Notes: generated by a model not told the origin, from the sequence alone. 64,000 nucleotides of DNA from Gemmatimonadota bacterium (GCA_038153405.1 JAYOYH010000004.1:32001-96000); one strand, 5' to 3'. Positions 44,741-49,882 are shown, numbered from the stretch's first letter. Program-made: numbers and translations.

Positions 44741-45310
44741 ATGTCACTTCGCTATCTGATCGCCGCCGCACTGCTGCTTGCCGCAGCCGGACTGGTGCTA
44801 TTCCACGACGGCGCCAACGCCTTTGATTTGGACGGCCGCCCATTCGACCCACTTGCTACCCGCGCGGCAGCCACCGCCCTGATTTTTGTCGGCCCCGATT
44901 GCCCGATTTCCAACCGCTACGCACCTGAAATCCAGCGCTTATCTGCCCGCTATGAACGCGACGGAGTGCTGTTTTTTCTGGTCTATCCCGATCCACAATT
45001 GAGCAGCGCCTCCATTCGCCAACACCTGGCGCAGTTTGCCTATGAGCTACCCGCCCTGCGCGATCCGCAGCACGCCCTCGTCGACTTAGCCGAAGCCGGC
45101 GCAACCCCACAGGCCGCAGTCTTTGACGGCGCGGGCGCGCTGGTCTACAGCGGCCGCATAGACGATCGCTATATAGACTTTGGCAAGCAGCGTCCCACCG
45201 CGCGCACGCACGACCTGGATGAAGCGCTGCAGGCTACTCTCGCCGGCAGGCGACCTGCCACCGCGCGCACACCGGCCGTGGGTTGCTATATCGCCGACCT
45301 GAAAGAGTGA
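44741..45310 (+). CDS. Exported thioredoxin-fold redoxin (AhpC/TSA-like)
   Basis: Signal/anchor segment, PDCPISNRYAP, ATPQAAV, YSGRIDD, AVGCYI. Confidence 0.85.
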   Translation: MSLRYLIAAALLLAAAGLVLFHDGANAFDLDGRPFDPLATRAAATALIFVGPDCPISNRYAPEIQRLSARYERDGVLFFLVYPDPQLSSASIRQHLAQFAYELPALRDPQHALVDLAEAGATPQAAVFDGAGALVYSGRIDDRYIDFGKQRPTARTHDLDEALQATLAGRRPATARTPAVGCYIADLKE

Positions 45311-47010
45311 TGCAAATCCGATTATTACGCCGCGCACGCGGCCTCGCTGCCCTACTGCTCGCTCTCTGCGCCTGTCAGCCCGCTGCGCGCGAGGACGCAG
45401 TGCCGACATTTAGCCGCGATATCGCTCCCGTCGTCTTTGCCAACTGCGTGCCTTGCCACCGTGCGGGTGGTCCCGGTCCCTTTCCCTTTACCACCTACGA
45501 TGAGGTCGTCGACCACGCCGGTCAGATTGCCGAGGTAACGGCCAGTCGCTATATGCCGCCCTGGCAGCCGGCAGCCGACTATGGGCGCTTTGTCGGCGAA
45601 CGCAGACTAACAGATGCCCAAATCGACCTAATCGCGCGCTGGGTAGAAGGGGGAACGCCCGCCGGAGATCTGACGCAGCTACCGCCCCTACCCGAATTCT
45701 CTGAGGGATGGCAGCTGGGCACGCCGGATCTGGTCGTCGCCATGGATGCGCCCTATCTCCTGCCGGCCGAAGGCGCTGACCAGTTTCGCAACTTTGTCCT
45801 GCCCGTGCCCGGAGACGGACCGCGCTACATCGAAGCGGTCGAATTCCAAACCGACAACGCGTCCGTTATCCACCACGCTGTGATGATGTTTGATCGCAGC
45901 GGAGCCGCGCGCAAGCACGACGCACGCGAAGAGGGCCCAGGCTTTGACGGCATGGTCTTTGGCCAAGCACAGGGACCCGACGGCCATTTCCTCGGCTGGA
46001 CGCCCGGCAAGCAGGCCTATCGCGACCCGGCGCTGGCCTGGAAGCTGGAACCGGCCACCGATCTGGTCGTACAGCTGCACATGCTGCCTTCGGGTCGACC
46101 CGAAAACGTCGCCGTGCGCGTCGGCTTCTACTACGCCGACGGACCACCGCAGCGCACGCCGGCACTGCTGCGCTTAGGGCGCAAGGACATCGACATTGCC
46201 GCAGGCGATGCCGACTACGCGCTGCGCGATGCCTTTACGCTACCGGTCGACGTCGACGTCGTCGGCATCTATCCACACGCCCACTACCTAGGCAAGCGCA
46301 TGGCCGTCTACGCCGACCTGCCCGACGGGCGCCGCGAGTGGCTGATTCGCATTGAGGAATGGGATTTTAACTGGCAGGACGACTACCGCTACGCCGAACC
46401 GGTCGCGCTGCCGCGCGGCGCGACCATCGTCATGGAGTACACCTACGACAACTCGGCGGCCAATCCGCTCAACCCGCACGATCCACCCCGCCGCATATTC
46501 TACGGCCTGCAGTCGAGCGACGAGATGGGCGATATGACGATGCAGGTCGTTCCGCGCAATGACGACGATCTTAAAACGCTGCAGCAGCACTATGCGCGCA
46601 AGTGGGTCGCGCAGGAAATCCAAGGCTACCAAACCATGCTCTTGCAGGATTCGACCCACGCGGAAAACCACCATACGCTGGCCATGCTCTATCTGCGCAC
46701 CCGACAGAGCACGCAGGCGCAAAAGCACTTTGAGCGATGCATACAGCTGCAGCCCGACTACGCCGAAGCGCGCGTCAACTACGCGATTGCCCTCAGCGCT
46801 GCGCGCAATATTAAAGGCGCAATCGACCAGCTATATGCCGCCGTAAGCAGCCAGCCAGACTACGCCGATGCCCATTTTAATCTGGCCATGGCCCTGTTTC
46901 AAACCGGGCAGCAAGCGGCGGCCAAGGAGCACTTCTCCCACGCTGCACGCCTGCGTCCGGAAATGGCCGAGGCGATCCATCGCCAACTGCAGCGCCTGCA
47001 GCTGCACTAG
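45310..47010 (+). CDS. Cytochrome c + copper type II (PHM/DBH-like) monooxygenase + TPR protein
   Basis: Lipobox-like LCAC, CVPCH, MPPW, VIHHAV, QLHML, PHAHYLG, WDFNWQ, DEMG, C-terminal TPRs (PDYAEARVN, PDYADAHFNLA). Confidence 0.85.
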   Translation: MQIRLLRRARGLAALLLALCACQPAAREDAVPTFSRDIAPVVFANCVPCHRAGGPGPFPFTTYDEVVDHAGQIAEVTASRYMPPWQPAADYGRFVGERRLTDAQIDLIARWVEGGTPAGDLTQLPPLPEFSEGWQLGTPDLVVAMDAPYLLPAEGADQFRNFVLPVPGDGPRYIEAVEFQTDNASVIHHAVMMFDRSGAARKHDAREEGPGFDGMVFGQAQGPDGHFLGWTPGKQAYRDPALAWKLEPATDLVVQLHMLPSGRPENVAVRVGFYYADGPPQRTPALLRLGRKDIDIAAGDADYALRDAFTLPVDVDVVGIYPHAHYLGKRMAVYADLPDGRREWLIRIEEWDFNWQDDYRYAEPVALPRGATIVMEYTYDNSAANPLNPHDPPRRIFYGLQSSDEMGDMTMQVVPRNDDDLKTLQQHYARKWVAQEIQGYQTMLLQDSTHAENHHTLAMLYLRTRQSTQAQKHFERCIQLQPDYAEARVNYAIALSAARNIKGAIDQLYAAVSSQPDYADAHFNLAMALFQTGQQAAAKEHFSHAARLRPEMAEAIHRQLQRLQLH

Positions 47011-47725: not shown

Positions 47726-49882
47726 CTAGCCAAGTATGAAAATAATATTGCGCGTCTGTCCGGTGATGTAGTCGATGACGATCCACAGCCCGTTGCACAG
47801 CGCTTCACCCGCTATCAGGCCGAGAAAAAAGCGCTGACTGCGCAGATAAAACGCCGGGCCGCCGTAGCGCATAACCATGCGCTTTAGCGCCCAGGCGATA
47901 AAGATGCTAAACCAAATTTTATTCATCAGGTGGTTGGCCGCCACGGCAAAACCAAGCGGATGCAGCGGCCACCACAATAGGTGCTGGCGCGCCCAGGTCA
48001 GCAGCAGCATTACGACCCCGCCAAACGCGAAGAATCCCAATTCCCCCCAGGCAATACCGGCTGGTTCCAGATTGCGCACGGCCGTATCGTAGACCACAGC
48101 GGGACCGCCCTTAAAAAACCAGCCGACTAAATTGATACCGCCGTGCTGATAGGCCATATGGAGCACCATCCAGCACGAACCAAAAGCGCCAATGCACACG
48201 GCCAAATAGGCGCCGTAGAGCACCAGACGTCGGCTGCGGCGATCCATATCTTCAATGAGCTTGAGTCCATTGGCCATCAGCGCGAGAATAAAAATGCGGA
48301 TGTCGGCCGCCCATATATAAGCCAGCGACATGTTGAGCACGCCCCCCGACCCCACTAGCGTCGAGCCCAGACCCTGCACCACTAAGTCGGGTGCGATCAT
48401 CGGCGAGCGCACCGCAGCAAGTCCCGCCTCAGCTACCACGCGACTGATACCGATAAAAATGAGCAGCGCCAAGACGACAAAGAGCAGCGCGACCCACAGC
48501 TTAGTGCCCATCAGCCACAGCCAGCCGACGACGATGGCGCTGCCGCCGACCAAGCCGCACAGCGCACCGCGGTAGGAGGCGACCTCGTCGCTATCGTCTA
48601 CATCGGCTGCTCCGGTCAGCGCCTTGCGCAGCACATCTTTGAGATGCTGGCGGCCCACCCACAGGCCCATCAGCACCATGGCGATGAGTGCACCACCGGC
48701 CTGGTAGGCCAGATAGGGCTGCTCGGCAATGCCGTATACAAAATTCTGCGTCGAGCGCAGACCGGCCAGCGCCAGCGCTTCCGATTCGGCTTTGGCCAGC
48801 AGGTGAAAAAACCACAGGCCGGCGGAGATATGCGTGTTGATCAAATAGGAAAAACCGATAATCGAAAACACTACGCGCAGCTGCAGCGTCTGTGTGCCGA
48901 TATACGAGGCAGCCCATGACAGATTCAGCACCGGATAGGCTGGATCGTAGTTGTGCAAGCCCTTTAACGCGCCAAAAAACAGCGGAATGGCCGCACCATA
49001 CCACATCGCTCGACTTTTGAAGAAGGCGTTGACCAACCCTTTTTCATCTTCGCCGCGCACCATCGCCAACCCCACCTGCGTCAGCGGGTAGGCCAGCCGC
49101 TCGCGCTCCACCCACTGGCGACGCAGGATCACCGCCGCTGAAATCATCGCTACATAGAGCGCCATCAGCAGCAGCCCCCACCACAACAGCGGCTCCACCC
49201 ACGCCTCCCACGGCACCGCAGCCTGCGCGCCCATACCCTCGTAGAACGTTTGATTATCGGTGCCGTCGTCGACCAATATCGAATGCCGCGGCAGCAGCGG
49301 CCCCAGCTTTTCTGCCCACTTATTTTCCGGCGTAGCATAGTAGGCCAGCGACGATATGATGGGCAGCAGCTGCTGGCTCATGCCCATCGTGCACAGGGCC
49401 GAAACCACCAACAGCATGATATAGACCAGCACTAGGTCGGCGCGATTGAGCGCCAGCGTCGAGCCGCGCACGGTAAGCGGCACGTTGGCGACGGCCGAAG
49501 CGATGAGAAAGGCGATCAGCCACAGACCTGGCTTAAGCCAATCAACCTCCTGTCCCGCGTAATAGCCGGCGGACAGGATCAGGGCGAAGGCCGCCAAGCC
49601 GAGGGCCATAGGCACCGAACGAGAGGCCACCTTAAACAGCGCATTGAGCAGGCCGATCAACACGATAAAGAGGAATATGGCACCCGGCGTATTGAAGTCC
49701 CACGCCATAAAGGTGGCGTGCATCGCCGTATTGGCATAGGGCGCGCCAATGGCCAAGAAAAAACTGAGAAACGCGCCGGTCCAAAAGCCGCGCCAGCTTA
49801 TGGAAGCCCCTTGACCAAAGACCAAACCATCGCTGCGCTCGTCGAGGTGCAGGGCGTATTCTTCAGGTATCTCTCTATTCAA
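47726..49882 (-). CDS. DUF6785-type polytopic membrane protein (putative transporter)
   Basis: DFNTPGAIFLF, YYATPENKW, LRRQWVERERLAYP, SRVVAEAG, WWPLHPLGF, MRYGG. Confidence 0.85.
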   Translation of the reverse strand: MNREIPEEYALHLDERSDGLVFGQGASISWRGFWTGAFLSFFLAIGAPYANTAMHATFMAWDFNTPGAIFLFIVLIGLLNALFKVASRSVPMALGLAAFALILSAGYYAGQEVDWLKPGLWLIAFLIASAVANVPLTVRGSTLALNRADLVLVYIMLLVVSALCTMGMSQQLLPIISSLAYYATPENKWAEKLGPLLPRHSILVDDGTDNQTFYEGMGAQAAVPWEAWVEPLLWWGLLLMALYVAMISAAVILRRQWVERERLAYPLTQVGLAMVRGEDEKGLVNAFFKSRAMWYGAAIPLFFGALKGLHNYDPAYPVLNLSWAASYIGTQTLQLRVVFSIIGFSYLINTHISAGLWFFHLLAKAESEALALAGLRSTQNFVYGIAEQPYLAYQAGGALIAMVLMGLWVGRQHLKDVLRKALTGAADVDDSDEVASYRGALCGLVGGSAIVVGWLWLMGTKLWVALLFVVLALLIFIGISRVVAEAGLAAVRSPMIAPDLVVQGLGSTLVGSGGVLNMSLAYIWAADIRIFILALMANGLKLIEDMDRRSRRLVLYGAYLAVCIGAFGSCWMVLHMAYQHGGINLVGWFFKGGPAVVYDTAVRNLEPAGIAWGELGFFAFGGVVMLLLTWARQHLLWWPLHPLGFAVAANHLMNKIWFSIFIAWALKRMVMRYGGPAFYLRSQRFFLGLIAGEALCNGLWIVIDYITGQTRNIIFILG

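Follow-up and report, generated by a model that had tools for sequence, protein, structure and literature searches.

Among described enzymes, those nearest to the locus reported here are the two-copper monooxygenases peptidylglycine monooxygenase (PHM, the core of PAM; PDB IDs: 1sdw, 1opm, and 1phm) and dopamine beta-hydroxylase (DBH), the latter grouped with tyramine beta-monooxygenase and MOXD (PDB ID: 4zel); in animals, enzymes of this kind carry out hormone amidation and noradrenaline synthesis. In this copper type II, ascorbate-dependent class, the ligands make up two copper sites that face each other across a cleft, about 11 A from one another. In PHM, the glycine carboxylate of the peptide is gripped by Arg240, Asn316, and Tyr318 (PMC12164859, section 7), and both the electron route to CuM and the role of ascorbate beyond reduction are described as still debated (PMC12164859). 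As for their taxonomic range, PHM and DBM are placed under eukaryotes only in Table 3 of a 2020 review (PMC7435645), a 2022 paper describes PHM as widespread in eukaryotes (PMC8812541), sponge DBH-like genes are presented without a bacterial homolog in the accessible text of PMC12665527, and that of PMC6529398 does not mention bacteria. For another copper enzyme, a bacterial LPMO, it is described that a c-type cytochrome (CjX183 of Cellvibrio japonicus) can replace ascorbate as the reductant (PMC8981238), though the LPMO has one copper and a different fold, and the cytochrome resides on a separate protein.

Like PHM, the enzyme at the present locus displays, in its model and alignment, a two-domain fold, six candidate copper ligands in register, and equivalents of Q170, Q272, and E313, and is predicted to be exported; it differs in being bacterial and in having a fused haem c domain, a lipoprotein anchor, a TPR tail, a redoxin partner, and no linked PAL, and it lacks R240, N316, and Y318, with 83 of 110 copper cores in the family free of any Cys. 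DBH, the best Foldseek match, shares the ligand pattern and an extra N-terminal domain ahead of the core, though here a cytochrome c motif domain takes the place of DOMON (for which the protein gave no Pfam match), and there are TPRs and no C-terminal dimerisation domain. Since the PHM substrate-site residues are not retained and DOMON is missing, we do not regard the enzyme as an ortholog of PHM or DBH. The eukaryote-only picture of PHM/DBM is changed by a bacterial family of this size in which all six ligands are combined with a predicted haem of its own.

Gene layout and the predicted two-copper core

The locus (Table 1) lies in a Gemmatimonadota genome, within the window, by which we mean the whole 64,000-nucleotide stretch of DNA that was analysed. 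Here, the locus is flanked by a sulfatase gene (divergent) and a gene of the PhyH family (convergent), between which the redoxin and main reading frames are the sole long ones on the plus strand; both flanking genes are common to close relatives only, and in related loci no conserved neighbour other than the redoxin was found. The TGA of the redoxin gene (45308-45310) has one base in common with the ATG at 45310, and no significant promoter or terminator signal was found at the unit. In the main protein, C22 sits within LALCAC at the end of a hydrophobic leader, with a Cys conserved at the same place in the 32 closest relatives listed, and from these features a membrane-tethered, exported lipoprotein is predicted. 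The main gene is single copy, with no paralog in its genome (4.86 Mb, 93% complete), and the closest named records belong to Gemmatimonadota (89% identity) and Ca. Latescibacterota (52-54%). In one metatranscriptome, three contigs of about 150 bases fall inside the two genes at 99% identity or more, and the flanking parts of the 5-kb stretch gave no match as good; this is too thin to count as evidence of expression, DNA being a possible source. Elsewhere, the window is rich in PhyH-family dioxygenases and sulfatases, and at 47726-49882 (minus strand) it encodes a 718-residue membrane protein with DUF6785 and DUF6784.

Table 1. Features of the redoxin and copper-enzyme genes (window positions; assignments of function are predictions)
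Feature	Position	Strand	Remarks
Redoxin gene, 189 aa	44741..45310	+	Exported PRX-like1-type, N-terminal hydrophobic leader, CxxS, C-terminal Cys
C54-P-I-S57 (CxxS), likely nucleophilic Cys	44900..44911	+	C54 invariant in 38/38 and in 113/113 fusions
C182 in C-terminal GC motif, likely resolving Cys	45284..45286	+	Invariant in 38/38, 51/51, and 113/113
Stop/start overlap TGATG	45308..45312	+	1 bp shared; likely translational coupling
Main gene, 566 aa	45310..47010	+	Lipoprotein signal, cytochrome c, PHM/DBH-type two-copper core, TPRs
Predicted signal peptide, lipobox-like Cys22	45310..45375	+	Read from sequence; Cys conserved among close relatives
Mono-haem cytochrome c domain (predicted)	45400..45684	+	C46, C49, H50 (45445-45459); likely axial M82 (45553-45555)
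CuH domain	45709..46137	+	H188, H189 (45871-45876), H257 (46078-46080); Q255 = PHM Q170
CuM domain	46162..46554	+	H323, H325 (46276-46284), M406 (46525-46527); Q356 = PHM Q272, E405 = PHM E313
Three TPR helix pairs and capping helix	46648..47007	+	After long linker helix (418-446)

The six candidate copper ligands occur in the motifs VIHHA (H188 and H189), QLH (H257), PHAH (H323 and H325), and DEMG (M406), and align one to one with H107, H108, H172, H242, H244, and M314 of rat PHM (numbering from PMC12164859, section 7). Together with M82, they are invariant in 150 of 150 alignment rows, in 110 of 110 relatives, and in 113 of 113 fused relatives, and in a wider set that includes distant paralogs they are present in 143-144 of 144 rows (a few genes being in this set twice). 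Moreover, the second-sphere residues Q356 (149 of 150), E405 (148 of 150), and, to a lesser extent, Q255 (109 of 150) are conserved. A search of the PDB with the single copper-core sequence gave no match, and PHM was reached only by way of the family profile and the fold search; in fact, a profile of 110 copper cores matched rat PHM by sequence alone (E 1.8e-6). In the fold comparisons, the identity to PHM is 13-16%.

An AlphaFold2 model of the 566-residue protein, built from the query and 149 of the 150 representatives (one tandem duplicate was excluded), reached a mean pLDDT of 94 and a pTM of 0.88. In Foldseek, DBH and PHM accounted for all of the matches listed among ranks 1-30 (best E 7e-12). 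Superposition on PHM, proposed in the first-pass annotation, gave in the VIA fold comparison a Z of 20.4 and an rmsd of 3.2 over 263 residues for 1sdw, with a Z of 20.0 for DBH. Taken with the ligand register, which agrees with the six PHM/DBH ligands listed in that annotation, the modelled fold supports a PHM/DBH-type core. Automatic annotation sees this domain in part: the protein scores 16-17 bits with PF03712 and PF01082, under the curated cut-off of 23, PF03712 is matched at E<=0.1 by 98 of the 110 relatives and above the cut-off by one fused relative (31 bits), and in the nearest Atlas clusters 27-37% of members carry it. The main protein and its relatives are not named by any NCBIfam model.

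Putative haem domain and redoxin partner

Ahead of the copper core, a CVPCH motif at residues 46-50 is followed by an MPPW motif, whose M82 is, judging from the alignment, the likely sixth haem ligand. All of the 100 domain sequences compared have C46, C49, H50, and M82, and CxxCH is found in 149 of 150 rows, the remaining row having a gap there. Solved cytochromes are matched weakly (E 0.03-0.9), as is Pfam Cytochrome_CBB3 (E 0.016), with cytochrome c6 (E 0.19) placing M82 on the Met of its MP motif. The N-terminal domain of the model is helical, and although no cytochrome c fold appears among the fold-search matches listed for whole proteins, other domains filled these lists, and its absence is no evidence against a cytochrome c. 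An N-terminal CxxCH, a distal Met, a helical N-terminus, and an export and maturation system all point to a class I cytochrome c; the genome carries cytochrome c assembly genes and a haem-copper oxidase. The mean conservation of the putative haem domain (0.62) equals that of CuH (0.62) and approaches that of CuM (0.63), as against 0.38 for the TPRs. The earlier description of a cytochrome c motif behind a lipoprotein-like signal, and of an upstream exported redoxin overlapping by 1 bp, was accordingly accurate in its sequence features.

The redoxin motif is CxxS (C54 and S57) with a C-terminal Cys182, and not CxxC; of 113 fusions, 3 have a Cys at the second CxxC position, and of 51 sequences, 49 have a Ser there. 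The CxxC active site of classical thioredoxins (TlpA, ResA, or CcmG) is thus missing. The Pfam AhpC-TSA and Redoxin matches are under the cut-off, and the PDB matches are 2ywi, 2cvb, and 3u5r (E 4e-9 to 2e-7), which are titled hypothetical or probable and form the fold group that we take to bear the name PRX-like1 in CDD. As in these proteins, a CP cysteine and a C-terminal GC cysteine are found on a Prx-like fold, though the present redoxin is exported, lacks the upstream Cys of CNHCP, and is dedicated to, or fused with, a copper enzyme.

This pairing is seen in several ways. Of 63 host-family genomes, 36 have both the close-type enzyme (E<1e-110) and the partner redoxin (E<1e-67), and the other 27 have neither; 27 of the 36 that have both belong to one genus, so they are not independent, and in one of the 36 the two genes are on different contigs. 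Of 80 wider loci, 68 include at least 1 kb upstream. In 28 of these 68 the redoxin gene immediately precedes the enzyme gene, in three it lies downstream, in one it is fused, and in 36 it is absent; 23 of the 28 upstream redoxins overlap the enzyme gene by 1 or 4 bases. The fused redoxin is of the same family as the one here (hhalign probability 100). Moreover, in 113 fusions, gathered by similarity to a Cys-bearing query, both redoxin cysteines are conserved throughout (113 of 113), the second lying 25-38 residues ahead of the haem Cys. A model of one relative's natural redoxin-cytochrome-copper fusion gave a pLDDT of 92 and a pTM of 0.87, with a Z of 23.1 to 3u5r for the fused redoxin form. 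From the pTM values of this fusion and of the 566-residue protein (0.87 and 0.88), we infer that the domains, including the redoxin on the core, may be packed in a fixed arrangement. By co-occurrence in the host family, gene overlap, and natural fusions, the redoxin is a genuine partner of the enzyme, and the dedicated, coupled redoxin of the first reading holds. Among Acidobacteriota, a redoxin is near 2 of 30 loci in five genomes (1.5-kb flanks), a different exported partner protein is found in 12 of the 30, and two of these genomes, rich in paralogs, contain 27-28 copper-core matches each against 0 and 1 close partner redoxins. Because the redoxin is missing at about half of the wider loci and for most paralogs of these two genomes, it is not the obligatory donor of the family as a whole.

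Proposed reaction, substrate, and rival readings

In our preferred reading, to which we assign a probability of about 0.5, the main protein is an exported, haem-fed PHM/DBH-type monooxygenase that hydroxylates a substrate other, probably, than a glycine-ended peptide, with the redoxin most likely re-reducing the haem. The lipid-anchored enzyme would take electrons into its own His/Met haem c, these would pass to CuH and on to CuM, and O2 bound at CuM would be used for hydroxylation of a C-H bond, with haem electrons replacing ascorbate. The coupled two-cysteine redoxin would likely feed the haem, and a DsbD-type protein, the domain of which is carried by the genome, may recharge the redoxin. 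We are quite confident of the haem-fed two-copper oxygenase core in this scheme and, such a core being granted, consider it fairly probable that the redoxin is its catalytic electron feeder. We know of no standard biological pairing of a two-electron thiol donor with a one-electron haem, which counts against the scheme, as do the redoxin-free loci (36 of 68, and 28 of 30 in Acidobacteriota), the different partner at 12 of those 30, and the separate contigs of the two genes in one relative. In such an enzyme, where the haem would act as an internal reporter and the core has hardly any cysteines or none, the electron route to CuM and the role of ascorbate beyond reduction would become directly testable.

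The strong rival retains the haem-fed monooxygenase and makes the redoxin a helper instead of a donor, acting in the removal of peroxide, in the reduction of a hydroperoxide product, in the upkeep of a reduced CxxCH in the apo-protein, or in copper loading (in the manner of CcmG, ResA, or TlpA), with the respiratory chain or a PQQ dehydrogenase as the electron source. A CxxS with a distant Cys on a PRX-like fold would suit such work, the nearest characterised folds of the redoxin type include ResA, DsbE, Bcp, and TlpA, and TlpA itself is described as reducing ScoI and CoxB ahead of their metallation (PMC6696091). The partner is, moreover, exchangeable or absent in the family, and 5 of 80 loci contain PQQ dehydrogenases, with such a gene sharing an apparent operon with the pair in two related genomes. 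However, a maturation factor need not stay fused, yet fusions with both cysteines are common; the genome already has a general cytochrome c assembly system; and the putative copper ligands are His and Met, in cores that mostly lack Cys. We consider a peroxide-removing or maturation role rather less likely than haem feeding.

Improbable, in our estimation, is a protein that is not a monooxygenase, but one that oxidizes a substrate and passes electrons out via the haem, or serves as an O2 or peroxide reductase, a copper store, or a sensor. Periplasmic dehydrogenases typically have a class I cytochrome c fused to them, the identity to PHM is low, and the roughly 20 paralogs in some genomes could suit binding or sensing. 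Nonetheless, an asymmetric His3/His2Met set is conserved along with the equivalents of Q272, E313, and Q170, and the distribution is confined to lineages with haem-copper oxidases: family matches occur in 73 of 140 genomes of the host phylum, COX1 is found in 69 of these 73 (the other four being fragmented assemblies), and the enzyme is in 0 of 16 genomes from five COX1-less families, which as kin are not independent. One aerobic family (COX1 in 20 of 21 genomes) has the enzyme missing from 20 of 21, which counts against the preferred reading.

The first-pass annotation had also suggested that the TPRs recruit a peptide or protein substrate, possibly for bacterial peptide hydroxylation or amidation. 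Such a reaction on TPR-recruited, glycine-extended peptides, whether alpha-hydroxylation or amidation, now appears very unlikely. In its favour, PHM is the closest sequence match of the copper-core profile, 3 of 80 loci include PAL-like NHL proteins (E 3e-39 to rat PAL), 3 of 80 have an M28 peptidase gene after that of the enzyme, and TonB-dependent receptors often adjoin the unit in Acidobacteriota. Against this, the equivalents of PHM Arg240, Asn316, and Tyr318 are Y321, D408, and T410, and over 144 rows the first position is Arg in none, the second Asn in three, and the third Tyr in six. The genome (93% complete) offers only NHL-type matches of 26-31% identity to a PAL-like query, none fused or adjacent, and no plausible precursor ORF was found in the unit. 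The TPRs are indeed at the C-terminus, as three helix pairs (helices at residues 451-548), but conservation is limited to generic repeat positions, the tails vary from 123 to 631 residues, many paralogs are without TPRs, and the genome has 93 TPR frames. Since the three PHM residues are absent, with no close PAL, no precursor ORF, and only generic TPRs, neither amidation nor recruitment by the TPRs is supported; the latter are likely a variable add-on for scaffolding or localisation. We consider a small molecule, or an envelope protein, that reaches the periplasm to be the most likely substrate.

A TonB-dependent receptor is directly adjacent in 13 of 80 loci (L030, L032, L049, L054, L060, L065, L086, L092, and five more), 12 of them among the 52 loci titled Acidobacteriota, and is not adjacent to the gene described here. 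Five sampled Acidobacteriota genomes have 6-56 TonB-dependent receptor matches each, by estimate about 1% of genes or less. These adjacent receptors hint at imported substrates in the acidobacterial lineage.

Least likely of all is a cofactor-forming or maturation oxygenase, for which MauG provides the analogy, modifying its own partner or another exported protein: clade-specific, tightly linked partners (the redoxin here and, at 12 of 30 loci from Acidobacteriota, an exported protein that is PKD-like) and the TPR tail would fit, but many copies have no partner, and the redoxin cysteines suggest redox work of their own.

Family distribution and architectures

Counted as clusters at 50% identity, relatives of the core number 14,804 with E<=0.001 and 9,080 with the stricter E<=1e-10, and the family loci are titled Acidobacteriota, Gemmatimonadota, Latescibacterota, Planctomycetota, and Verrucomicrobiota. 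Database titles are limited to 'TPR protein', 'peroxiredoxin', or 'redoxin domain-containing protein', and no published account of the bacterial family was found in the open-licence literature, in agreement with the first-pass remark that no assigned function was known. The architectures include forms with TPRs, forms with a front-fused redoxin with or without TPRs, forms with a short Ca-binding-like or EF-hand tail, the bare core, and a distant clade. Two Vicinamibacterales genomes (G147 and G148, those of loci L064 and L074) have 27 and 28 matches, with about 20 paralogs each. The copper-core tree (144 rows) has no eukaryotic outgroup and no support test, and so we draw no claim of ancestry from it.

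More speculatively, and a little short of even odds in our judgement, the enzyme could be a self-contained oxygenase wired from thiol through haem c and CuH to CuM, a single clade within a family that comprises thousands of clusters, reaches some 20 paralogs in a genome, and swaps its partners. It would be an ascorbate-free form of the animal enzymes for hormone amidation and noradrenaline synthesis, perhaps also the pool ancestral to them, with a new means of C-H hydroxylation in the bacterial envelope. The family also suggests that abundant uncultured bacteria carry out copper oxygenase chemistry that has gone unnoticed.

Several variants merit description. Redoxin, cytochrome c, copper core, and TPRs are joined in a single chain in four-part fusions (L033:7308-9716+, P0286, P0287, and P0293), and two cores occur in tandem in L079 and P0123. 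At L060:3039-3896+, L059:12256-13221-, and 12 of L153-L182, TPR-less acidobacterial paralogs pair with an exported protein of about 300 residues that replaces the redoxin and bears the motif FEGWxxNxDG...GYxNRN; PKD-like is annotated on 13% of one Atlas cluster, this partner matches no Pfam or NCBIfam family, and it is absent from the genome studied here. FG-GAP/ASPIC-UnbV proteins are within 15 of 80 loci. An apparent operon at L023:1212-9671+, seen also in L024, encodes a TPR protein, a PQQ dehydrogenase with ankyrin repeats, a tryptophan-halogenase-like flavoprotein, the redoxin, and the copper enzyme.

The distant fourth clade (L144:5942-7321-, L139:13302-14693+, L149, L150, and L151) comprises putative haem c and PHM-like lipoproteins with the motifs GSHH, NSHY, SHAH, and DEMM, and in one genus sits next to an amidohydrolase gene, separated by 5-6 kb from the TPR-type gene. 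In L139-L145, which represent a single genus, genes for a sigma factor, an anti-sigma-like protein, and a periplasmic adaptor-like protein lie divergent from the pair, with hemA and a cytochrome c assembly-like gene nearby, these neighbours being named by reading their sequences.
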